A stretch of DNA of 22,830 nucleotides, from UHGV virus genome UHGV-0089399; one strand, 5' to 3'. A program made the translations under genes and the position numbers. Positions within the stretch are counted from its first letter, which is position 1. The number at the start of each line of letters is the position of its first letter. The notes under the pieces are model-generated. The model saw nothing but the letters and a program-made list of their open reading frames with translations, did no database searches and was not told the origin of the DNA. Shown here one piece after another: positions 3,379 to 22,830 of this stretch. Source of the DNA: a virus.

Positions 3379-3781
3379 CGTCTTTTCTCCCCGGAATTAA
3401 CTCGCGTGGATTATCGGAACGGTGATAGAGCCAGATACCAATTCGCACTGCGACAATTGCTGATACGAATGCGCCAGCAGAGAAAACAATCCCTTTCTCG
3501 AACGAGTCCTGCGTGATGGTAGGGATCAGGCTGGCTATGCCGATAAGAATTGATGCTGCTGGTTTGTAAAAAAGAAGGCCGCAGAGAAAGCTGAGCATCG
3601 ACAAGAATACGCGACGACGAATTGGATACTCTACCGCAGAGGTAACAAAAATTACCGCACCAGCAAGAGCACCGAGCGCCACCTCTGGCGGAACACCTAC
3701 GATAACCGCAGCAAGAGAGCTCACACTAAGCCATTGATTTAAAGACTCAGTTGTTATGTTAACCGACATAGCACACACCAT
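3365..3781 (-). CDS. Holin-like membrane protein
   Basis: 138 aa with several hydrophobic helices and a charged C-terminal tail ([18 protein letters not shown]). First gene of the lysis cassette. Two in-frame ATGs 4 codons apart (MVCAM). Confidence 0.5.
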   Translation of the reverse strand: MVCAMSVNITTESLNQWLSVSSLAAVIVGVPPEVALGALAGAVIFVTSAVEYPIRRRVFLSMLSFLCGLLFYKPAASILIGIASLIPTITQDSFEKGIVFSAGAFVSAIVAVRIGIWLYHRSDNPRELIPGRKDDGNA

Positions 3782-3944: not shown

Positions 3945-6551
3945 TTATTTCCTGCAAACTCCAGATGATGTTAATCCATCAAAAATAACCTGCACTCTGG
4001 CAATAACAACATCAACTCCAGAAGTCGTTTCACTTGCATAACCAAGTTTTATTTTAGATACAATATCCTGAGTAAGTTCAGATATTTCAGTTTCTGCAAT
4101 GTTACCAGAGGCCATGTGATTATCGTATGCCATAGAATGAATTCCATTATTGACATCGATTGAACTAGTATGTTTGTGAAAAATAGATGGGTTTACCTGA
4201 AACGAATTTGAACCGATAAGATCAGAAGATACTCCATTCATCACTGCAGTACAGCGTGGAATATTATTATCGGTTATTGTCATATGCAGACGGTTACCAG
4301 TTAACCCCTCACCAAGTGTGACATAATACGCCAATTCTCCACCTGCATATTGTTTCCCCTCAACAATAACAGTAATCCCTCTTAATTTCTGATTAGCTAG
4401 CAAAAACTTATTACTGTCTATATAGCATTTATTTGCGGAACCAAAAACAGCCCCTTCTAAAATATCTGATGAATAGGAATAAATAAGGTCACCAGAAACA
4501 AAGGAAAGAATATCAGATACGTTTCCTTTTTTAGATAAGTTGGGAGAATAGCTATTAACTATTTCATATTGTCCTGTGATAAAATCAAGGTAAACGCCAT
4601 CAGTTTTCATCTCTTTAAAGAAAATGCTATTAAAGCATCCATCAAGAACCGGTGGATATATTCTAGAGCTTGCATAAGCTGTTGGGTGATTCTTATTATT
4701 ACCACTACCAGGCGAATAAACATCTTCGTTAGTCATTGACTTTTTAAGCTTAACAGGAATCATCGGCTGCATATCAATTTTGCAGTTCCCTGAACCACCG
4801 ATGCGAGGATAAAATAAACCACCAAACCTTACAATATTACTACTGAATAGTATTTCGTTATCGTTAAGTGTTATCTCAACGAAGTTTCCAATAAGTTTAA
4901 ATTCAACTGAAAACAAACCAAGTGGAGCAGATAATTTAACAATATTGCGCATAAAAACACCTACAGTCCCTGTTGATGCAGTATAGTGTGTGGTTTCAAA
5001 GGCAGAGCCTGTATATTTCAAGTTAATGAAATTATTATGGTATGAAGACAATTGGAATTGAATCCCAGAACTAAGGATTTCAATATCTACAAATTGAATC
5101 CTTACGGAGTAAGAATATGATAAATCTTCATATTCATAAGGCAATGTAACATCTTTTGAAATAGTTGCCCTCACATAATTACCAGAAACCACATCAACCC
5201 CATCACGTACTGCATTAAAGTAACGATTAAAATCAATAAGCCCAGCGCCAACATACTGCGCATATGAACGAGTCCATCCTGCCATTGCGTTTCGTCCATT
5301 CTGAGCTTCTAAACTGCTAAATTCAGAGTCACTTGTGGTACTTGATGGGAGGATATTTGTACAAAAAACAATTTCAGGCATTGAAGTAATATCATTCAGT
5401 TCAGCCATCAATTTAAAAAAAGTTTTCTGCGGGAAGTTACCAACATCCCAACCATCTCCGTCATTCATGCCAAAAGCAATAATAACAACATCAGGGTTAA
5501 TATCACGAATGTAATCAATCCAGCGTCTGTTCGTGTCTGAATACCATGGGTACTGTGAGTTATAAGAAGTAATTGCTGGTGTATCTTTTCCAAGGTCATA
5601 GTACCTCATTCCACCAATTGCTCTGTTAAATAAAGTAGAACTTGGGAATTTCTCTTGCAAAACTCTCTTAAGATGAGCGGCAAAAATGCTTGATCGATCC
5701 ACTGTGCTTATATTATATGGGGCACTTAAGCTGTCACCAACTAACACTATTTTTGAGTTAGGCCTTGATAATCTCTCAAGTGTTTTAGATGTGACTAAAC
5801 TGCAGGAATTAATGAACTGAGTACTATTTAGCGTCTGTTCAAGTGTATCACCAAATCTGGTACCAACGTATGATGATCCGTTGACACTTGCTAGCTTAAG
5901 GCATAAATCAGCAGTATCTGTAATTGAAAAAATAGGAACAGGACGTCCTAAACTGTCATACCCCTGAATTGAGTTTGCCCTAGAAGATGCTGATGCCATT
6001 TCGCTTACTATCTCAGGGAAGCGGAGTGTTTTAGATATGTTGCTGTTAATAACTCCTTTGATAGATGAGTCTGTATATTTCTTCGTGGAAGCGTCCTGAG
6101 GAAATAATGGATCATCAAGGTTACGAATACGATTGCCGAGTGCATCGTAGTAAGTGGCACTAAATGATGGTTTACGAAGAGCCAGCCGAGCCATGCTTTT
6201 GACTAACTGGATCAGCATCGTTAGCTTATCAAAAGCATCCTCATGCACTTCCGCAAAGAACTTACCCTGATTGCGCAGATCAGTTTCCTGTGTAACCGGT
6301 AGCTCTCGTGATATAGAAATCTTATAGCCATTGGCCAACGCCTTCGACAATATTACATTTCCACCATTGTATCCTCCGGCCCCGGTAACTATATAATCAG
6401 TATCAAGAGTCAGTACGGTGATATTTTCATGAATATCAACAACCTGCACAATCAAATCAGATTTATTGAAAACCCTAAAGGCATACGGAAACGATGTCGT
6501 AACGCCGTTACCGGTGTATTCGTTGTGGTCAACTTCGGTTGAGACCGTCAT
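3945..6551 (-). CDS. Tail fiber/tailspike with T7 gp17-like N-terminal anchor and SGNH/GDSL hydrolase (esterase-like) domain
   Basis: 868 aa. N-terminus (EYTGNGVTTSFPYAFRVF...LTLDTDYIV) resembles the conserved T7 tail-fiber N-terminal domain. Central GDS block (VLVGDSLSAPY), a conserved Gly block and a GxND block (VVIIAFGMNDG) are typical of SGNH hydrolases. GGAG ribosome-binding site upstream. Confidence 0.8.
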   Translation of the reverse strand: MTVSTEVDHNEYTGNGVTTSFPYAFRVFNKSDLIVQVVDIHENITVLTLDTDYIVTGAGGYNGGNVILSKALANGYKISISRELPVTQETDLRNQGKFFAEVHEDAFDKLTMLIQLVKSMARLALRKPSFSATYYDALGNRIRNLDDPLFPQDASTKKYTDSSIKGVINSNISKTLRFPEIVSEMASASSRANSIQGYDSLGRPVPIFSITDTADLCLKLASVNGSSYVGTRFGDTLEQTLNSTQFINSCSLVTSKTLERLSRPNSKIVLVGDSLSAPYNISTVDRSSIFAAHLKRVLQEKFPSSTLFNRAIGGMRYYDLGKDTPAITSYNSQYPWYSDTNRRWIDYIRDINPDVVIIAFGMNDGDGWDVGNFPQKTFFKLMAELNDITSMPEIVFCTNILPSSTTSDSEFSSLEAQNGRNAMAGWTRSYAQYVGAGLIDFNRYFNAVRDGVDVVSGNYVRATISKDVTLPYEYEDLSYSYSVRIQFVDIEILSSGIQFQLSSYHNNFINLKYTGSAFETTHYTASTGTVGVFMRNIVKLSAPLGLFSVEFKLIGNFVEITLNDNEILFSSNIVRFGGLFYPRIGGSGNCKIDMQPMIPVKLKKSMTNEDVYSPGSGNNKNHPTAYASSRIYPPVLDGCFNSIFFKEMKTDGVYLDFITGQYEIVNSYSPNLSKKGNVSDILSFVSGDLIYSYSSDILEGAVFGSANKCYIDSNKFLLANQKLRGITVIVEGKQYAGGELAYYVTLGEGLTGNRLHMTITDNNIPRCTAVMNGVSSDLIGSNSFQVNPSIFHKHTSSIDVNNGIHSMAYDNHMASGNIAETEISELTQDIVSKIKLGYASETTSGVDVVIARVQVIFDGLTSSGVCRK

Positions 6552-7066: not shown

Positions 7067-7143
7067 TCTTGTGCCATAGTAATCGGGCACTGGCAAAATC
7101 CGGTGCCGGGATTGGTCTCCCGGATTACTACAGAGGCACATAT

Positions 7144-7164
7144 GCCGCATAAGCGGTTTTTTTT
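7144..7164 (+). terminator. Weak intrinsic terminator/attenuator-like hairpin with U8 tract
   Basis: Short stem CCGC-ataa-GCGG followed by tttttttt, between the small ORF and the Bro-N gene. The stem is short, so function is uncertain. Confidence 0.35.
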
Positions 7165-7318
7165 ATGTGTAAAGCGCACCTATTCTATGGTGGGCTGTGT
7201 GGGGGCACCGAAAGGTGCGCCGGGTTCCTTTGTAGCCGGTAAGACCAACTCTGCACAGTTCACCACCATCTGATTGGTCTCAGCGGTGGTGATTAACCTA
7301 ACTACAAAGGTGATCGCC

Positions 7319-8140: not shown

Positions 8141-8467
8141 ATGACAAAACTTGGATTCGTGATGAGAGGTCCGGTAAGAAGCGGAACTCATGCAAAGCGT
8201 AGCAAGAGTCGTATTTTTACTGGTAAGGTTGTAGCACGTAAATCAGCTATTGGCTCGTTCAATAGTGAAAATGCGGCATTGCGCCATATTTTTATCAGCA
8301 CAAAGCCAAGAGCATCCGCTGATGTGCATACAATGACTATTCCTATCACAAAGAATATAAAGCGGATAAAAAAGCTCTCATCTGCAGAATCAAAAGAGAT
8401 ATCTTTCCGCCAGCTTAACTCATTAGAAACGCATATGAAGGAAGAGGAATTCGATGTTTTTGAGTGA
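8141..8467 (+). CDS. Hypothetical basic protein (108 aa), first gene of a coupled pair
   Basis: GGAG ribosome-binding site 8 nt upstream. Lys/Arg-rich N-terminus. The 3' end overlaps the next gene by 14 nt. AT-rich relative to flanking DNA. No motif I recognise. Confidence 0.5.
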   Translation: MTKLGFVMRGPVRSGTHAKRSKSRIFTGKVVARKSAIGSFNSENAALRHIFISTKPRASADVHTMTIPITKNIKRIKKLSSAESKEISFRQLNSLETHMKEEEFDVFE

Positions 8468-8966
8468 GTATAGCGGGAAGGTTATACCTACTGGTGAGTT
8501 TAAAACTGATGACTTTCTGATTTCGCTAAAAGATGCTTTTAAACAACACTGGCGTCATGGTCATCATCCTGATCTGGGAAAAGATACTCTTTTTGAAAGA
8601 CCAGACGAAGTATTAGGTTTCCATCTCAGAAAGGTTCATGTCAATATTGGTGAATATGCATCATATTCATACTCATGTACTGAACAGTGTTGGGATGAGT
8701 GGTCATATGGATTGATTGATGAACAAGGAAATTACAGGCCAAAACCAACCAGTAACGCATATCTCATATATGCAGTCAATGAAATAAGAGATGCAGCCTT
8801 ACTAGCTTATTGGGACCCGCCCGCACACACCAAAGCTAACGCAAAAGTTTGGATGGATTCCGTATTGAATTTCACAAAATTATTTCATGAACGAACGAAT
8901 ACAGCTCCACTTAGTAGAAATGTTTATCCGTGGGATTATTCGTACAAATCCAAAAAGCCTGCATAG
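8454..8966 (+). CDS. Hypothetical protein (170 aa), second gene of a coupled pair
   Basis: GAGG ribosome-binding site inside the upstream gene; start overlaps the upstream stop region. Contains a His-rich stretch (WRHGHHPD). No recognisable family. Confidence 0.5.
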   Translation: MFLSEYSGKVIPTGEFKTDDFLISLKDAFKQHWRHGHHPDLGKDTLFERPDEVLGFHLRKVHVNIGEYASYSYSCTEQCWDEWSYGLIDEQGNYRPKPTSNAYLIYAVNEIRDAALLAYWDPPAHTKANAKVWMDSVLNFTKLFHERTNTAPLSRNVYPWDYSYKSKKPA

Positions 8967-17534: not shown

Positions 17535-20005
17535 CAGAATCCCCCAACAGTAAGGCGAGGAATAACTGCAAGAACAGACAGCGGCAACGGATCAAGCTGA
17601 CGGATTTTTACACGTCCGTTTTTGCCCCAGTTACTGTCCAGTTTCACTTCTACTTTTCCGGTAGCATCATCAACAGGATCATCGTAGAACTCGAATTCAC
17701 GCTGTGGATATTCGTACCATTTACCGCCGGGCGTAGTCGCCCAGATGCCGCGACTGGCATTCACAACCAGAGTAACGGACGGGATCACCTGTTTTTTGTC
17801 CAGCAGCGTTTCCTGTCCGTTAATGTTGATATCCAGTGTTTCGAATTCAGCAGTTATTGGCAGGCCGATGTGCACTACAGCCCCCGGAGATTCCAGCGTG
17901 ACGGCACCTCCGGAAACCACTTTCTGTGGTTCCACGTTCGCATCAGAGAGGATGTTTACGGTCTGGCCTTCAAGATGAGACAAGCCGCCAAATGTCCGGC
18001 GCGCCATCTGCCAGTTCGTGGTGGCCACATTCCTGAGGGATGGCGGGACGTTCCTGTTAGCACGAACCACTACAGCGGTATTGCTGGTTACAGAAATAAT
18101 GTCGCAACGTAATTCTTTTGACACTTCATCGCCAATATCAGGAACAGTTCCGGCATAAGGGAACTGTAGTTGCGCGCCGACATCACTACTGGTGAAGTAC
18201 GCACCACCAGAAATACTGATTGTATATTCCGCGCGGTAATCCCATTCACCAGAACCACCAGTGATGGTCATCGTTCTGTCAGACGTATTTCTTCCATCAT
18301 AGCTAAGGCCAGAATCAACAAAGAAAGCATCTTCATCGCTGGTAAATAAACGGCTGGACAGTCGCTCTATGTATCTCACTGTTTGCCCGTTAACGGTTCG
18401 GTTAACGACGAAATACACCGCATCTTCATTGCCTTCGCTGATACTGCATGTGCTTTCATATTTCCCGGTACTGGATTGTGGTGCCCATGCAAAAACCTGC
18501 TGATCACGCAAATAGGTCATCACCAGTAATTTACCGTCATCACGAATGCAGAAGGCGCTGGAGTAAGGGACAATCGAGAAGCACCAGTCAACAATGCTGT
18601 GCTTCTGAAAAAGATGATTGGCAAGGATGGTCAGGTCGTTCCCCTGATAGCCGTCAACATCGAATGAGTAGGCCAGATCACGGACAACACTGCCTTTCTC
18701 CTGGACGAACAGAGCAATATTCGCCACGGCAATTGGTGGGACATTGCTCGAGCCATTTGATCCCTGAGAGCTGAATGCAAATGATGATGGGGTTAACACT
18801 TTGTTCTGGTCGCCGGTGATGACGTACTCACCTCCGGAAGTCAGCGCCACCAGCGAACCAACATCAATCAGGTGACGGATCTCATTAACCTGACGCCCGG
18901 CATAGGTGTAGATAATTCTGTCGTCATCCTGCGTAGGATTGCTTTTGCCAAAATCCTTATAATCCCCGGTACGGCTGGCCCAGATAGTCTGAGGGAACGC
19001 AGTCGATGCGGCGAAGTAAAGACGTTGTTGATAATAAACAACAGTGCCAGGATAACCATTAACTCTGTTCCAGGCATATTTAGCCCATTTATAGCTGGCA
19101 TTATCCTCGCCAACGACCTGCGAAGGGATATAGGAAATCACCTGGGCAGTTGCAGTAGTGCCATTTGCAACAGTGATACGGGCAATGCCAAAACCACTGT
19201 GCAGATATTCCCACTCAATGCCAGTATCATCATCTCCGGATCCGCCCCAGCCATCCCATGATGTGCCTTCTGTATGCGAAGGGCGCAAAGTGCCTGTTTT
19301 ACCTGCCGTAACAGCACGATAGTAGTTACTGTCTGCACGGCGAATATCGCCAATCGACGTACTCTTACTGGTTTCCCATACCGGTACTGAATCCACTGCT
19401 GGCTGTTCCAGATAGAACAATTTGCCTACCTGTTCCGCGCCAAAAATAGAGGCGTTTGCCGTTAACGTAATTGTCCCGGTGCTGGCGCTGGCATAAACCG
19501 TCACTGACTCGTCAATATTGATATCTTCAAATGGCCCGTTCTTCGTTACCACATCAACCAGTTGCCAGTTGTCATGCGCATAGCGGCGCAACTCTTTCGG
19601 CGGGTATGCCGGGTGAACCAGCGTAAGCACGTCGGCGCTTTGCGTGAATTTAATTCGGAACAGATCGGCTTCAGTATATGGCGTGGCAATTTCATAAATA
19701 ACATTGCTGCTGTTCAGCACCAACGCACCATCTTTGATAACGCGCATGTACTGGTGTCCGAACTCCAGAGCATAGGTCTGAACCGTCGAGAACTGGAACG
19801 GGATCAGACGGCATTTCCGATTTGGGTATTTGGCGGCACCGACAAAACGCGTACCAGGTCGATTCTCAACGCCGCCATACTGCCGCACGATAAAATTATC
19901 GCACTTGCGCAATGCCACCTGGTACTTCGCCATGTCGATACGTCCGAACAACGACGGTCCAATCTCACCACCGGCAAAGCTGGGCTGGATCCAACTGATA
20001 GCCAT
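17534..20005 (-). CDS. Tail tubular protein B, gp12-like
   Basis: 823 aa (T7 gp12 is about 794 aa). N-terminus MAISWIQPSFAGGEIGP...ENRPGTRF resembles the gp12 N-terminal pattern. Immediately downstream of the gp11-like gene with overlapping codons. Confidence 0.65.
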   Translation of the reverse strand: MAISWIQPSFAGGEIGPSLFGRIDMAKYQVALRKCDNFIVRQYGGVENRPGTRFVGAAKYPNRKCRLIPFQFSTVQTYALEFGHQYMRVIKDGALVLNSSNVIYEIATPYTEADLFRIKFTQSADVLTLVHPAYPPKELRRYAHDNWQLVDVVTKNGPFEDINIDESVTVYASASTGTITLTANASIFGAEQVGKLFYLEQPAVDSVPVWETSKSTSIGDIRRADSNYYRAVTAGKTGTLRPSHTEGTSWDGWGGSGDDDTGIEWEYLHSGFGIARITVANGTTATAQVISYIPSQVVGEDNASYKWAKYAWNRVNGYPGTVVYYQQRLYFAASTAFPQTIWASRTGDYKDFGKSNPTQDDDRIIYTYAGRQVNEIRHLIDVGSLVALTSGGEYVITGDQNKVLTPSSFAFSSQGSNGSSNVPPIAVANIALFVQEKGSVVRDLAYSFDVDGYQGNDLTILANHLFQKHSIVDWCFSIVPYSSAFCIRDDGKLLVMTYLRDQQVFAWAPQSSTGKYESTCSISEGNEDAVYFVVNRTVNGQTVRYIERLSSRLFTSDEDAFFVDSGLSYDGRNTSDRTMTITGGSGEWDYRAEYTISISGGAYFTSSDVGAQLQFPYAGTVPDIGDEVSKELRCDIISVTSNTAVVVRANRNVPPSLRNVATTNWQMARRTFGGLSHLEGQTVNILSDANVEPQKVVSGGAVTLESPGAVVHIGLPITAEFETLDININGQETLLDKKQVIPSVTLVVNASRGIWATTPGGKWYEYPQREFEFYDDPVDDATGKVEVKLDSNWGKNGRVKIRQLDPLPLSVLAVIPRLTVGGF

Positions 20006-20613
20006 CAGGACAACCTCGCAATGGTAAACTCATCAACCGGTGGCTGTGGTTCCTGTGATTCATTCTGGCTATGCGAGCCAGCACTAAGAATCACGCGATT
20101 GTACATATTGAGGGCAAACGTACCGAGGTCTGCATTCCCAGTCAGCGCCATGTTAATAGCTGCCGCAAGACGCCAGGCCAACGCCTCCATAAAAATGGCA
20201 TCAAACATGTTCACATCTGTAACGCGAGAGACATACTTGAGCCATGCCTGAGGCTGGTCTGTGTAGATCAACTTTCCTGTTCCGTTGGTGTCTGCACCAA
20301 CTTCGTACTGAACGCGCATTGATGCTGTTGGATTGCGTACACCAGGAAGCATAATTTCAGTAATGCGCAGACAATCTGACGGGTACTGGTACGCATATTC
20401 CCAGTCAGGCGGTGGATTGCTCGTATCTGCAAGCGCCACGCGTTTGGTAGCAAAGTTCCAGTCAAAATCAGAAAGCACAGCATCACGGCAGGCCTCAAAG
20501 TGCAGCGAACATTCCCCCGCTTCCTTGCTGGCTTCCGTCAGGCTGTTAATGCTGCGGCTGTTGCCAATATTGGACAGCGCACGATTGCAGATCTCTACTA
20601 CAGAGGCCATCAC
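20005..20613 (-). CDS. Tail tubular protein A, gp11-like
   Basis: About 200 aa. N-terminus (ICNRALSNIGNSRSINSLTE) resembles T7 gp11 (VNDILASIGEPPVSTLE) as recalled. GGAGGTGA ribosome-binding site upstream. Size and order match the T7 tail module. Confidence 0.65.
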   Translation of the reverse strand: MMASVVEICNRALSNIGNSRSINSLTEASKEAGECSLHFEACRDAVLSDFDWNFATKRVALADTSNPPPDWEYAYQYPSDCLRITEIMLPGVRNPTASMRVQYEVGADTNGTGKLIYTDQPQAWLKYVSRVTDVNMFDAIFMEALAWRLAAAINMALTGNADLGTFALNMYNRVILSAGSHSQNESQEPQPPVDEFTIARLS

Positions 20614-20933
20614 TCACCTCCGTTACCGTACAGAGTTTCAGCCGCTGATTTTTCTACATCCCCGGAAACAGGAGCGATCGCCATATCAGTGATCTGCAGA
20701 TCGGCGCTGCGATTAACGCCATCGTCAGTTTCTCTGGCAGACAGGCCTCGAATAACAGCCTTTGCAGTTATCATCACTTCTGTTCCGACGCCCTGAGGTT
20801 GCGCCTTCAGCTTATTCAATGTGTCGTTATTCAGCGTGATGCACAGCCCCCACGGGTATTCATCGCGAGTTCTGGTTTCTCCGCTCTCATCCTGGTAGCT
20901 GTCAGTGCCGGTTTTGAGGTTTACGAGTTCCAT
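20610..20933 (-). CDS. Hypothetical protein (107 aa), translationally coupled to the gp11-like gene
   Basis: Start MELVNLK at 20933, preceded by a GGAG ribosome-binding site and a GC hairpin. Stop overlaps the gp11-like start. The track ORF extends further upstream into the ArdC gene end and is probably too long. Confidence 0.4.
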   Translation of the reverse strand: MELVNLKTGTDSYQDESGETRTRDEYPWGLCITLNNDTLNKLKAQPQGVGTEVMITAKAVIRGLSARETDDGVNRSADLQITDMAIAPVSGDVEKSAAETLYGNGGE

Positions 20934-20950
20934 ATACACTCCTGCAATAA

Positions 20951-20966
20951 AGGGGCCGAAGCCCCT
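20951..20966 (-). terminator. GC-rich hairpin (AGGGGC-ttcg-GCCCCT) at the 3' end of the ArdC-like gene
   Basis: Perfect 6-bp stem with a UUCG-type loop, followed on the minus strand by TTATTG. Overlaps the ArdC-like stop codon. Confidence 0.4.
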
Positions 20967-21960
20967 ACCCTGCAATGTCATCAGGTTGGGTGTCGCCGAA
21001 TAGCTGCGCATCGAGACGTTCGCCGATGAACCGCACGACCTGACGCACATCGCTCAGAACCGAGAAGATGAATGCAGGTTCCGCGCGGATCTTCTCCAGC
21101 CAGCCTTTCAAGTAGGCGACGTTCTCTGAACGGATGCCGCTCGAAATCCCGAGGCCGCAACCGGCCAGAGCTGCCGAAAATTCAGCGACCAGCTCCTCGC
21201 GGCCGTAAGCCTGACGCGACCGATCCTCGAAGTGCCGGTCCAGACGGTCGGCAGTACCCGTCGAATGGCTCATCTCGTGAAGAAGCGTGGAATAAAATGC
21301 CTCCAGATCGGAGAACTGCTCTTTGAGAGGCACGACGATAATATCGTCCGCCGGAGAGTAGGACGCCCGGTCGCCGACCTTCAGGCGGATCGGACAGACC
21401 CAGGATTGCGCCTCGAGCATACGCTCGAGAGTCGGATGCGCCGTGCCTGCGGGACGCCGGGGATGAGCCTGCCGGTCGAAGATCTGCTGCCAACGCTGCG
21501 GATACCGTTCGGCAAAGTCCGTTTGGTCGAGATTCAGTACCGGGTAAAAACGCAAGCTGAACCGCAGCACATACTCCTTGCGCTCGGATTCGGAAAGATT
21601 TTTGAAATCCTCTACCGAAAGATAGCGGGGTTTGCCTTCAACCGGAGTGGCGGCCAGGTAAAAGGGCTTCCAGAAAATCACCGGAAATTGTTTCGAGCCC
21701 TTGCGGACCTGCAAACCGAGTTCTTTGGCCTGCTTAAAGGTGACGAATACAGGGCTCTGGTAGCCCTTAACCTCCGTAAGCATAAGCAACGTCAGAATGT
21801 TCGCGCCGGTATAATTCCTCCCGGAGACAATGTTGTAGGGAAGAACGCCCTGTCCGAAGATCCACGGCTTCTGCCAGGATTCGGTCATGGACTCGATCTT
21901 GGCGATCATCAATTCTGCGAAATGCGAAGAGACTTTCTCGAGAACATCAGAATGTGACAT
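20965..21960 (-). CDS. ArdC-like antirestriction protein (ssDNA-binding N-domain plus zincin-like metalloprotease C-domain)
   Basis: 331 aa. C-terminal metalloprotease motif LLHEMSHSTGTADRLDR (HExxH followed by TG...RL.R), characteristic of the ArdC family. GC-rich coding sequence unlike the neighbouring phage genes. Confidence 0.7.
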   Translation of the reverse strand: MSHSDVLEKVSSHFAELMIAKIESMTESWQKPWIFGQGVLPYNIVSGRNYTGANILTLLMLTEVKGYQSPVFVTFKQAKELGLQVRKGSKQFPVIFWKPFYLAATPVEGKPRYLSVEDFKNLSESERKEYVLRFSLRFYPVLNLDQTDFAERYPQRWQQIFDRQAHPRRPAGTAHPTLERMLEAQSWVCPIRLKVGDRASYSPADDIIVVPLKEQFSDLEAFYSTLLHEMSHSTGTADRLDRHFEDRSRQAYGREELVAEFSAALAGCGLGISSGIRSENVAYLKGWLEKIRAEPAFIFSVLSDVRQVVRFIGERLDAQLFGDTQPDDIAG

Positions 21961-22421
21961 AACGTAAATGCAGACTTTATCCTCCTGCGCCGGAGTTCTA
22001 AACTGCCTGAAACGCTCAGAACAGCGATGCAGACTCAGCCGATCCGGGCGACTGCTTCAAAGGCAAGGACCCGGAAGGAAATATTTGCCGTCGAGACATC
22101 GACGGGCGCAGCGGACAAATATTTCCGAATCGGGCCAGGCGGCCAGCCTAACCAGGCTGGACGATCCTTGCCGCTGTCGAACGGATGTCGGCTAACTTTG
22201 CATCCATGTTGTGAGTGGAAATACCGCTCTCCCCCGGATGACGAGTTCGCTTGTCGATCGCGGTCGTCCGCGAGCTGAGCCCGGCGGCATAGTCGCCGGG
22301 AGCTGCAAGTTCAGGGGGCCCGAAGGTCGTGCGACAGGATCGGAGATCCGCACGGCGAGATAGCCGGTGGTCAACCGGCAACCGGCTATGGCCGGGTCCG
22401 ATGAATTTCTATGTGATGAAT

Positions 22422-22448
22422 CACAAAAAAAGAGGGGCTTAGCCCCTC
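22422..22448 (-). terminator. Rho-independent terminator
   Basis: Stem GAGGGGC-tta-GCCCCTC (22432-22448), followed on the minus strand by TTTTTTTGTG. Lies just downstream of the stop of the 22454-22825 ORF. Confidence 0.6.
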
Positions 22449-22453
22449 CTCCA

Positions 22454-22825
22454 TCATCCAATGATGTGGATTTCTCCGGAAATCCCGAGTTCACGAAGGT
22501 TGCGAAGCAGGCGGCCGAGATGTTTAGCCTCCTGCTCCTTCGCATTGGAACCAGGCGTATCGAGCCAGGTGTTGATGTCTGACTTGTAATTGTCGGTCCG
22601 TTCGACAAGATCATCGATAACATTCACCAGGTTGTCTAAATACACCTCCGGAACACGGTTCGTCTCGGTTCCGGAATCATCCAGAAGGCGGACTTCGAAA
22701 AGATCCAGACCCTCGTCGTAGAGCACAGCGACCCAGCCTTTGTGCTTGAAACCACTGACATGGAACCAAAGGCCCTCCATATCATCCCTACGATACGGAG
22801 CCCGTTTCTCCAAGCCCCACGACAT
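22454..22825 (-). CDS. Hypothetical acidic protein (123 aa as seen; may extend beyond the window edge)
   Basis: Open frame reaching the last codons of the window, ended by a clear terminator. No recognisable motif. GC-rich. Confidence 0.35.
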   Translation of the reverse strand: MSWGLEKRAPYRRDDMEGLWFHVSGFKHKGWVAVLYDEGLDLFEVRLLDDSGTETNRVPEVYLDNLVNVIDDLVERTDNYKSDINTWLDTPGSNAKEQEAKHLGRLLRNLRELGISGEIHIIG

Positions 22826-22830
22826 CTGAA

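Follow-up and report, generated by a model that had tools for sequence, protein, structure and literature searches.

The window, that is, the whole 22,830-nt stretch of DNA analyzed here, is the last 22.8 kb of a metagenome contig (ENA ERZ827482 NODE_391; 65,103 bp, k-mer coverage of 4.7). An earlier note on this DNA had described an ArdC-like 'island' in the late-gene region of a T7-type phage. The features in the right-hand part of the window are:

20005 to 20613, minus strand: gp11-like adaptor or tail-tubular-A gene (202-aa ORF), within a 20,966-nt block of 100% identity and outside the 'island'
20610 to 20933, minus strand: gp10 capsid staple protein gene, 107 aa from MELVNL..., Pfam PF21628 (Gp10-like), E = 2.9e-51
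20949 to 20966, no strand: junction, the 18-nt AAAGGGGCCGAAGCCCCT, a terminator-type hairpin, placed by three-way alignment and BLAST end points
20965 to 21960, minus strand: ardC, 331 aa, recognized by Pfam and a PDB match; assigned to a Bacteroidales MobB-type ICE and not to the phage
21961 to 22410, minus strand: one copy of a repeated structured element of ~450 nt (the 'GC-rich spacer'), abutting the ardC start codon
22412 to 22425, no strand: 14-bp palindrome TGTGATGAATCACA, operator-like, between the upstream terminator and the element
22428 to 22452, minus strand: intrinsic-terminator-like hairpin and T-run, ending the upstream cassette gene
22454 to 22830, minus strand: cassette gene, the 3' 125 codons of 141 aa, of the family MAKYIWSILRSAP..MSWG..GFKH..DLFEV

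Judged by its matches, the stretch from 1 to 20966 is an E. coli prophage of the phiV10/epsilon15 type (Uetakevirus-type), and not the T7-type phage that had been supposed. It aligns as a single ungapped match, at 100.0% identity, with at least 41 E. coli chromosomes, and the match ends at 20966; the portion from 19500 to 20966 is 98-99% identical to phiV10 and 100% identical to E. coli prophages. This prophage part has gp11/gp12-like tail genes as well as a T7 gp14-family core protein, and its structural module has a GC content of 50.3%. Relatives of the 202-aa ORF are annotated as phage connector family protein, tail tubular protein A or adaptor, and the 107-aa gene that the earlier note had listed as unknown is labeled 'gp10: capsid staple protein' by RefSeq at the identical E. 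coli locus. All 527 matching E. coli genomes and all 22 phage records cover the region from 19500 to 22830 only up to 20966. What follows in the phage is taken from the annotation of one locus, NZ_CP033884, where the gene order is portal, two hypothetical genes, major capsid, Bbp16 cement, a hypothetical gene and gp10; the earlier note had correctly located the foreign DNA at the place where head genes are expected. The right arm of the window (20967-22830) was absent from 5,426 complete E. coli genomes, 50,697 phage records and 72,556 plasmids, the plasmids having been searched in distant mode as well.

By domain content, the product of 20965-21960 is a bona fide two-domain ArdC, in agreement with the earlier reading of it as ArdC-like. 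The N-terminal ssDNA-binding domain (ArdcN, PF08401) was found at residues 9-107 with an E-value of 1.1e-29 and 103.6 bits (cut-off of 22.6), and the C-terminal zincin domain (MPTase-PolyVal, PF18818) with an E-value of 3e-28. Nearly the full length of the protein (residues 12-312) matches the solved R388 ArdC (6i89/6sna; E = 4e-32), with the HEMSH of the window protein, an HExxH motif, aligned to the HEATH of R388 ArdC. The identical 331-aa protein occurs on at least 24 contigs. Among the ten contigs listed, nine have an ICE context, with SSB, MobB relaxase, TraG/MobC and methyltransferase genes as neighbors, and gp10 is a neighbor in the source contig only. On these sibling contigs ardC lies a few genes upstream of, and co-oriented with, a MobA-like/MobB/MobC operon, together with SSB and methyltransferase genes, a putative leading-region position as judged from gene order. 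The closest genomes for both ArdC and the ~450-nt element are those of Alistipes and other Bacteroidales.

The similarity extends well beyond the gene. From ~20940 to 22430 (20940 to 22407 or 22431) the window is 97-99.5% identical to nine other metagenome contigs, and onwards from ardC everything up to the contig end is ICE, namely the element, the cassette gene and a further copy of the element, with no return of phage sequence. We identify bases 20949-22830, from these alignments, as a piece of a Bacteroidales (Alistipes-like) ICE with a MobB relaxase and a MobC-type coupling protein. That this DNA is compositionally foreign, as had been claimed, is borne out by a GC content of 56.1% over 20967-22830 (56.3% in ardC, 59.6% in the spacer) versus 50.3% in the phage, and by tetranucleotide correlations of 0.31 with the phage versus 0.77 with non-homologous parts of the ICE contigs. 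The GC content of about 70% given in the earlier note holds locally, with 97 of 1820 sixty-nt windows at 70% or more and a maximum of 73%, but not on average. The GC hairpins said to bracket the segment are present on both sides, as AGGGGCCGAAGCCCCT at 20951-20966 and as the terminator-like site at 22452-22428.

On the sibling contigs the segment belongs to a row of cassettes, each laid out as a terminator, a short palindrome, the ~450-nt structured element and a small gene. The small genes behind the element encode ArdC, PcfK, WYL_2/DUF2693, a Zn-ribbon protein and unknowns; about ten small gene families besides ArdC are found behind it. Most element copies are preceded by similar palindromes (TGTGATnnATCACA, GTAATATTGATATTAC, ATATTATTATA...TAATAATAT). 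The row adjoins an orphan N6 methyltransferase gene and SSB, all transcribed towards the mob genes, and the cassette genes are candidate 'establishment' genes. The 141-aa cassette gene at the edge of the window has its true start ~48 nt outside, with a further element copy in front of it. Locus L004 has inverted repeats (8271-8305 and 8673-8725) in the 1-kb gap that precedes its mob operon, and these may be oriT features.

The only sequence common to both parents is the 18-nt AAAGGGGCCGAAGCCCCT at 20949-20966. Phage identity stops at 20966 and exact ICE identity begins at 20949 according to the BLAST end points, and in a three-way alignment, with the E. coli prophage and four ICE contigs set against the window, the switch of parent falls inside these 18 nt; directly beyond them the phage reads AAT and the ICE AAA. 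In the ICE this hairpin terminates ardC, and in the phage it occupies the gap between gp10 and the gene upstream of gp10; in both parents it has the same orientation and follows minus-strand genes. The join lies ~2 kb from the end of the contig, which stops inside an ICE repeat: the last 56 nt of the contig repeat an internal copy of the ~450-nt element, which looks to us like a repeat break at k=55. In 241 million metagenome records scanned for a 43-nt sequence across the junction there was no exact match, and among the contigs examined that carry the identical ArdC, the phage-ICE join was present in the source contig only.

Taken together, these findings indicate, with a probability of roughly 0.88, that the window is an assembly chimera of an E. 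coli prophage and a fragment of a Bacteroidales ICE, and the 'ArdC island' almost certainly does not belong to the phage. The crossing from one genome to the other would have taken place at the 18-nt hairpin, either in the assembler or in a chimeric library molecule, and the path would then have halted 2 kb later inside the ICE repeat. The head genes would thus be missing because the assembly path left the phage and, with separate parents joined at the hairpin, the late region of the phage would hold no ArdC island. The smallest k in usual use by assemblers is 21, and the exact shared run of 18 nt is shorter than this; a k-mer join therefore needs one error or variant, or else a chimeric library fragment. 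Of the moron or recombination junction suggested earlier, the joining of a different mobile element at this point stands, but a biological feature of the phage is not supported, since each flank has its own parent (100% and 97-99.5% identity) and the join is found in the source contig only. The earlier note, in considering what would speak against its view, had left an assembly artifact out of account.

A join formed in vivo is improbable in our judgment. It would require that, in one E. coli line, ICE DNA from a Bacteroidales donor recombined with a resident prophage through the 18-nt microhomology, so that the head genes were replaced and a defective prophage remained. Microhomologies of 10-20 nt are typical of junctions made by illegitimate recombination, so the junction alone does not discriminate between the two origins, and both the extra error or variant needed for a k-mer-driven join below the common k and the shared orientation of the two hairpins after minus-strand genes fit a recombinant. 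However, the left arm matches at least 41 sequenced E. coli without a single mismatch in 20,966 nt, the right arm occurs in none of the 5,426 E. coli genomes, 72,556 plasmids and 50,697 phage records, donor and recipient would come from different phyla, and the junction is confined to one contig of 4.7x coverage, 2 kb from an end that stops in an ICE repeat. Anti-restriction genes are indeed found in phages, terminators often flank morons and the segment does differ in composition from the phage backbone, but the idea that ardC and its neighbors form an older accessory module native to the phage, between its capsid and tail genes, is effectively refuted by the alignments: the segment is in no related phage or prophage (0/22 phage records and 0/527 matching E. 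coli genomes past 20966), it is 97-99.5% identical to ICE contigs with a composition not adapted towards the phage, and the place that the major capsid, scaffold, portal and terminase genes would need to occupy holds more ICE sequence.

The 'anti-restriction island replacing the capsid gene' is thus best treated as a mis-join and kept out of phage annotation, host-range inference and counts of cross-phylum transfer. Such cases can be screened quickly by asking if each flank matches a parent of its own at 99-100% identity and if the switch falls within a short shared hairpin. The ~450-nt element, a by-product of the analysis, may matter more than the island. Its internal features in the window copy are:

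21971 to 22009, minus strand: 3' tail hairpins (CUCC...GGAG), then an A-rich start region; helices 21-22
22015 to 22215, no strand: long imperfect hairpin, a ~100-bp stem with two side hairpins, from nhmmer self-antisense matches and covariation
22167 to 22170, plus strand: -33-like CTTG within CCTTGCC, in nearly all copies; the consensus is TTTG
22193 to 22200, plus strand: -7 box match TAACTTTG (TAnnTTTG), on the antisense strand in an internal loop of the long hairpin, reading from apex to base
22223 to 22390, no strand: 5' domain of several short GC hairpins and a CCCCC/GGGGG long-range helix; helices 2-12

Searching with an nhmmer profile of the element gave 78 matches, 77 of them distinct, which are related copies, so that their conservation does not amount to 78 independent observations; 76 end within ~6 nt of an ATG. 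There are up to three copies per contig, all sense-oriented and abutting the ATG. Folded as ssDNA, 21961-22410 has z-scores of -6.3 (sense) and -7.5 (antisense). In the helix alignment 88.6% of cells are paired, compared with 33-45% when partners are slid, and compensatory cells number 145 versus 64 ± 5 in shuffles. The helices of the long hairpin (13-20) are 85-99% paired, with compensatory changes, and in 35 of 35 copies the antisense strand gives this hairpin the greater stability (z of -6.6 versus -5.0 with a shuffled composition control). For the 3' tail, the sense orientation is the slightly more stable one (29/35 copies), and roughly one copy in three has another 5' module in place of the 5' domain.

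The element matched no Rfam family at gathering score when 4,227 other models and STAXI were run on the window and seven ICE loci, which excludes the STAXI and DUF2693-type motifs as its identity; the matches that did arise were C4/isrK in the phage and tRNAs, and the spacer searched at E-values up to 1 gave one chance match, to sbcD (E = 0.86). The nhmmer profile found no copy upstream of ArdC homologs in Prevotellaceae, Tannerella, Dysgonomonas and Parabacteroides loci. Upstream regions there are conserved between loci and are not repeated within a locus, with one exception, a 287-nt second copy in a Tannerella locus (L018).

The Bacteroidetes promoter consensus is TTTG at -33 and TAnnTTTG at -7, with a differing primary sigma factor (PMC7366714), the consensus being that of Bacteroides and not of Alistipes. 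The motif TAnnTTTG stands at the same aligned position on the antisense strand of 66 of the 77 distinct copies and on the sense strand of none. The arm of the internal loop opposite this box is hypervariable and non-complementary, such that the bubble is conserved on one side only. The CTTG, 22 nt upstream of the -7 box in the fully paired helix 16 (99.2% paired), is a weaker match to the consensus than the -7 box. Spacing between the -33 and -7 boxes is 19-21 nt in Bacteroides, and that of the element is thus 1 nt longer. In locus L002, TAnnTTTG is rare, with 11 occurrences per 41.6 kb on both strands, four of which lie 32-188 nt upstream of a gene on the same strand. The sense strand of the element and of its upstream region gave no convincing Bacteroidetes or sigma-70 promoter; within the 90 nt upstream of the element and its first 45 nt, TAnnTTTG occurred in just 1 of 32 copies. 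Elsewhere, a regex match at 3646 of a Dysgonomonas locus (L014) was rejected as chance, lying within a 1175-aa gene with z of -0.4 and no fold. A similarly built hairpin was seen only in one Porphyromonadaceae locus (L029), where it gives weak support, TAnnTTTG being common in this AT-rich DNA.

We tentatively propose, at somewhat less than even odds, that the element at 21961-22410 is a Bacteroidota counterpart of Frpo, a promoter confined to the single-stranded state of the ICE. The strand that enters by conjugation would be the template strand of the establishment genes, this strand (antisense) being assigned from gene order. Its long hairpin would rebuild the promoter, with the -33-like box in the paired stem and the -7 box exposed in the bubble, on the non-template arm. 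The host RNA polymerase could then transcribe ArdC, PcfK, WYL_2 and several small unknown proteins before second-strand synthesis, from a start that we infer to lie near 22022-22030 on the minus strand, giving a 5' UTR of ~65 nt. ArdC would be made before the DNA becomes double-stranded and, by analogy with R388 ArdC, may protect the incoming DNA from type I restriction. After conversion to duplex, the -7 box would point away from the gene and expression would be off. On double-stranded DNA, the same -7 box would drive antisense transcription.

We consider it rather less likely that the element is instead a structured 5' leader RNA of the riboregulator or antitermination type, with a promoter near the upstream palindrome and an antisense -7 box that either is there by chance or serves as promoter for a cis-antisense RNA, by which the leader is repressed in established cells. 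In favor of a leader, the element runs exactly up to the start codon, with an A-rich initiation region inside it, it is multi-branched with conserved unpaired blocks, as in many RNAs, and copies are preceded by an operator-like palindrome and a terminator. In addition, long leader RNAs are reported to control the establishment genes of pLS20-type plasmids (PMC6294495). On the sense strand, eight pairs are for the most part G-U, which suits an RNA, and a wobble test with the structure predicted from the sense strand gave 281 GU versus 140 AC cells but was biased by construction; the less biased test of minority wobble pairs (74 GU versus 86 AC cells) had no strand bias, and so speaks for neither the leader, for which no sense-strand excess was seen, nor the ssDNA promoter. 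We replaced the wobble-pair test by strand-specific folding energies with shuffles, and the greater stability of the antisense long hairpin in all 35 copies, also after composition control, argues against a leader RNA. So do the sense-strand counts of TAnnTTTG (0/77 in the copies; 1/32 in the upstream 90 nt and first 45 nt), the conserved loop side that spells the -7 consensus while the other side varies freely, and the lack of an Rfam family. An integron-like cassette recombination site, near a 425-aa tyrosine recombinase (L005/L068), was set aside in view of a complete tRNA gene that separates the integrase from the array, mosaic and gene-conversion-like variation among copies with no fixed crossover point, and the abutting of elements on start codons rather than their following stop codons.

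If the element is indeed a promoter of single-stranded DNA, the genes behind it would be a ready-made catalog of candidate anti-defense or establishment factors in gut Bacteroidales ICEs. Promoters of this kind explain the immediate expression of anti-defense genes by F-like plasmids on entry. A repeated hairpin with a correctly oriented Bacteroidetes -7 box, before ardC and about ten other small gene families, would make the question of ssDNA promoters in Bacteroidota directly testable, and the element would point to uncharacterized establishment proteins in abundant gut ICEs.

Each part of the window has its counterpart among known systems. The stretch from 1 to 20966 is of the same type as phiV10 and Salmonella phage epsilon15, in which a hypothetical gene, Bbp16 cement, major capsid, two hypothetical genes and portal lie upstream of gp10, none with ardC. 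The join resembles inter-genome chimeras of short-read metagenomes in its abrupt cross-phylum switch at a short shared sequence, its low coverage, its place near a contig end that stops in a repeat, and the 99-100% identity of each side to its own parent; it differs in a shared run slightly below the usual minimum k, for which an extra error, a variant or a chimeric fragment has to be assumed. The ArdC of R388/pSa (IncW; PDB 6I89, 6SNA; PMC7213743) has the same architecture of ArdcN and HExxH zincin and is a distant relative of the window protein (HMMER bit score of about 114). It is encoded on a proteobacterial plasmid, whereas the window ArdC is encoded on a Bacteroidales MobB-type ICE, with SSB and methyltransferase genes around it and the relaxase operon downstream, and the anti-restriction activity of the latter is putative, by likeness to R388/pSa ArdC.

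The element is akin to STAXI and other 'possibly ssDNA' motifs (Weinberg 2010, PMC2864571) in being a conserved structured element near antirestriction, SSB and integrase genes for which a role as ssDNA has been considered, but STAXI is enterobacterial and consists of repeated pseudoknots, and its Rfam model did not match the element. In the literature searched, including the main text of a 2024 leading-region survey, there was no mention of Bacteroidota or MOB_B. The likeness in build is to Frpo/ssi of the F and ColIb-P9 leading regions (Masai & Arai 1997; PMC7690428, PMC11541004), where several homologous copies of 300-450 nt also stand directly upstream of leading-region genes (anti-restriction, near ssb) and a long imperfect hairpin dominates, with the boxes on one arm and the transferred strand as template, an arrangement predicted for the element from its candidate boxes and from gene order. 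Frpo/ssi carries sigma-70 -35/-10 boxes and the element candidate boxes of the Bacteroidetes -33/-7 type (TTTG / TAnnTTTG); since the sigma-factor consensus differs, no sequence homology between them is expected, and the likeness is one of build. The element further differs in having its -7 box in a bubble with a hypervariable other side and in an extra structured 5' domain.

The DNA at 20951-22830 had been described in the earlier note as a GC-rich ArdC-like island lying where the capsid gene is expected. On the combined evidence, this ArdC island is almost certainly no genuine part of the late region of the phage. The genes concerned are as follows.

Genes and gap at the right-hand end of the window
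20005-20613, minus strand: gp11-like gene
20610-20933, minus strand: 107-aa gene, gp10 capsid staple protein (Pfam PF21628, 2.9e-51)
20965-21960, minus strand: 331-aa ORF, ArdC (Pfam and alignment with R388 ArdC)
21961-22453: gap of 493 nt without a credible ORF
22454-22830, minus strand: ORF cut by the window end

The observations behind that description stand. The 331-aa protein is clearly an ArdC as judged from its domains (ArdcN, 1.1e-29; MPTase-PolyVal zincin, 3e-28) and its alignment with the solved R388 ArdC (6i89/6sna; E 4e-32 over residues 12-312, where HEMSH occupies the HExxH site). GC content is 56.1% over 20967-22830 versus 50.3% in the tail/core module, with local peaks of up to 73% per 60 nt, and GC hairpins lie at 20951-20966 and 22428-22452. 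The 107-aa gene, called unknown in the earlier note, encodes the gp10 capsid staple protein. Tetranucleotide usage marks the right segment as foreign to the phage, with a correlation of 0.77 to non-homologous parts of one ICE contig and of 0.31 to the phage, against 0.84 in a phage-to-phage control.

Sequence identity shows the left side to be an E. coli prophage that is already known. Positions 1-20966 have an unbroken match of 100.0% identity in at least 41 complete E. coli chromosomes. The query 19500-22830 matched 527 E. coli genomes and 22 phage records (phiV10, TL-2011b, HEMP4, Tyrion and others), in every case no further than 20966. In the prophage annotation of NZ_CP033884, the genes before gp10 are a hypothetical gene, a Bbp16-family cement protein, the major capsid protein, two hypothetical genes and the portal. 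Elsewhere in this prophage, the early/immunity region holds an isrK Hfq-binding RNA (7087-7163, plus strand; 73.7 bits) with a C4 antisense RNA (7183-7270, plus strand; 78.6 bits) directly behind it. We read this pair (7087-7270) as an immI-like module of the P1/P7 type for antirepressor control, here carried by a phiV10-type prophage. A low-GC block (35-39%, with neighbouring structural genes at ~50%) within an 868-aa ORF (3945-6551, minus strand), especially at 4000-5500, resembles an exchanged module for receptor binding or O-antigen modification; the ORF may be the SGNH/GDSL hydrolase family protein of the RefSeq annotation at the identical E. coli locus.

For the right side, near-identity searches of phages and E. 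coli genomes found nothing, and neither did a plasmid search, even in distant mode. The exact ArdC protein was found on at least 24 metagenome contigs. Nine of the ten places listed were ICE neighbourhoods with a shared gene set, in which ArdC is accompanied by an orphan N6 methyltransferase, small unknown genes, SSB, a 936-aa protein and a coupling protein of the TraG/TrwB type. NCBIfam assigns the 936-aa protein to the MobB relaxase family (216 bits; cut-off 200), and the coupling protein weakly resembles Bacteroides MobC, below threshold; a MobB/MobC-type mob operon is of the kind found in Bacteroides conjugative transposons (PMC3809561). The tenth place is the window's source contig (ENA ERZ827482 NODE_391; 65,103 bp, coverage 4.67), the only one of the ten in which gp10 adjoins ArdC. 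The closest genomes by ArdC are Alistipes and other Bacteroidales (at most 46% identity over the full length). The protein is a distant but ordinary member of its family, and its location is also usual for ArdC.

How were the two sides joined? In BLAST against the fetched loci, identity to the ICE is 97-99.5% over 20940-22407/22431 and identity to the phage is 100% up to 20966. A three-way alignment showed that the parents share exactly AAAGGGGCCGAAGCCCCT (20949-20966), with the window following the phage leftwards and the ICE rightwards; this hairpin lies after the ardC stop codon in the ICE and in the gap upstream of gp10 in the phage. A 43-nt probe spanning the junction had no exact match in a 241-million-record metagenome collection. 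The source contig stops 112 nt past the window and its last 56 nt also occur in an internal copy of the ICE repeat; we interpret this as the mark left by a k=55 de Bruijn repeat break. One arm matches E. coli perfectly and the other matches Bacteroidales almost perfectly, and the switch falls within a short shared hairpin; coverage is low, the join was seen once, and the contig breaks off in a repeat 2 kb on. From these points together we consider the join to be most probably an assembly or library chimera (probability about 0.88). Against this, the shared run is only 18 nt, so that a k=21 link across it requires one error or variant (AAT versus AAA just upstream) or a chimeric fragment. The suggested recombination junction with a different mobile element does exist as a switch at 20949-20966, but its origin in vivo, as a real illegitimate recombinant, is unlikely. 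A native phage moron, the captured anti-restriction gene first proposed, is excluded for practical purposes.

The GC-rich gap at 21961-22410 is itself a repeat, with its sense on the minus strand. Second copies, 92-93% identical, precede other genes on the same ICE contigs, which often break there. A profile search of loci fetched with a conserved 18-mer yielded 78 copies of this element (77 distinct); 76 of the 78 end within ~6 nt of an ATG. Behind it stand genes for ArdC, PcfK (PF14058, 1.5e-46), WYL_2/DUF2693 (PF10902, 2e-20), a 75-83-aa Zn-ribbon protein, a 94-101-aa family and three related 141-150-aa families, in rows of up to three cassettes, each ordered terminator, short palindrome, element, gene. 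No Rfam family matches the element.

Several further observations concern these rows. The short perfect palindromes (TGTGATnnATCACA, GTAATATTGATATTAC, or ATATTATTATA..TAATAATAT; window 22412-22425 and most copies, loci L002-L189) differ in type with the element subtype and resemble operator sites of a dimeric regulator. The ORF at 22454-22830, whose start lies just past the window end, belongs to a 141-aa family without a Pfam family; proteins of 100-150 aa with SWG...GFKH...DLFEV...IDxxVE motifs (22454-22830, minus strand; relatives P0001-P0091) recur behind the element, have no Pfam family or significant fold match, and are candidate establishment or anti-defence proteins. Alistipes montrealensis retains the element (86% identical) followed by only a 91-codon N-terminal stump of ardC (95% identical; its locus L030, 10001-10276), and the window's ardC is two-part in GC (21000-21960, minus strand; N-domain half ~50%, metalloprotease half 60-64%), which suggests mosaic or decaying copies. 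At two loci the first element in a row has a complete tRNA gene, in antisense orientation, directly upstream of it (L005 2365-2438, minus strand; L105 4423-4496, plus strand), and in L005 and a further locus, L068, this gene stands between the row and a 425-aa tyrosine recombinase; the ICE probably has its boundary or attachment site here. A lone copy of the element's first ~60 nt, with nested GCCGG inverted repeats, occurs at the start of the last gene before a 1-kb gap upstream of the mob operon (contigs L004 7667-7726, L002 13227-13286 and equivalents), and the 17- and 24-nt inverted repeats in this gap (L004 8271-8305, 8673-8725) may belong to oriT.

The element is strongly structured. Against shuffles, the window copy had z-scores of -6.3 (sense) and -7.5 (antisense) as ssDNA and -4.8 as RNA. 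Its main feature is a ~100-bp imperfect hairpin (22015-22215), also seen as a self-antisense profile match. Among 35 representatives (71-96% identity), onto which the structure was projected from the close-copy consensus, 88.6% of cells were paired versus 33-45% with partners slid by 1-3 columns; double changes occurred at 30 pairs (shuffles 21.4 ± 2.2; slid 14-23) and compensatory cells numbered 145 (shuffles 64 ± 5; slid 34-71). Covariation support is good but not overwhelming, since 'further pair types' showed no excess over shuffles and the copies are related. A test of wobble pairs favored neither strand (74 GU and 86 AC cells), whereas folding energies did. In the hairpin domain the antisense (window plus) strand was the stabler in 35/35 non-independent copies, by 7.6 ± 2.7 kcal/mol, and dinucleotide shuffles gave z -6.6 antisense versus -5.0 sense (antisense lower in 31/35). 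For the short 3' tail the sense strand has a slight advantage in stability (29/35).

The Bacteroidetes -7 box TAnnTTTG (consensus from PMC7366714) has exactly one antisense match in 66 of the 77 copies, at the same aligned position (22193-22200, TAACTTTG), and no sense-strand match in any of the 77; the other 11 mostly have TAACTTCG or TACCTTCG there. CCTTGCC, whose CTTG compares with the -33 consensus TTTG, is kept 22 nt upstream in nearly all copies, within a helix 99% paired. The -7 box lies in an internal loop between conserved stems, opposite a hypervariable, non-complementary side (at least 12 versions in 35 copies). L002, an ICE contig, has few such motifs (11 in 41.6 kb, both strands); four lie 32-188 nt upstream of a same-strand gene, mob operon included, and none precedes a cassette gene in the sense orientation. 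In a Porphyromonadaceae ICE (L029, 9520-9990 and 15500-15741; 34% GC, ArdC 42% identical), ardC is preceded by a ~230-nt hairpin (ssDNA z -5.2) that carries antisense TAACTTTG...GGAAATACC, like the window element. A second copy, 71% identical, lies upstream of a 93-aa gene, behind which come two genes that by eye look DUF3560-like and ParB-like. This similar build lends weak support, because TAnnTTTG is common in such AT-rich DNA.

We tentatively favor an ssDNA promoter of the Frpo/ssi type, at somewhat less than even odds. If the antisense strand is transferred, the box-bearing arm would be the non-template strand, from apex to base (geometry by hand), the opposite arm would be a template contiguous with the gene, and RNA polymerase would produce sense RNA from ~22022-22030 (minus strand) with a ~65-nt leader; in duplex DNA the same boxes would be directed away from the gene. 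Cassette genes, ardC and ssb are all directed towards the mob operon in 6/6 informative contigs, and relaxase operons usually enter last; we infer from these that the antisense strand is the transferred one. The structure could instead belong to a leader RNA in the sense direction, perhaps accompanied by a cis-antisense RNA that starts from this box; we consider that less likely, and another role, such as a priming signal or recombination site, is less likely still.

As far as our searches show, the element is undescribed so far, and the main text of a 2024 leading-region survey mentions neither Bacteroidota nor MOB_B (PMC11541004). If confirmed, it would be a variant of the ssDNA promoter, sharing its principle with Frpo/ssi of F and ColIb-P9 (PMC7690428; PMC11541004) but written in the Bacteroidetes promoter code.
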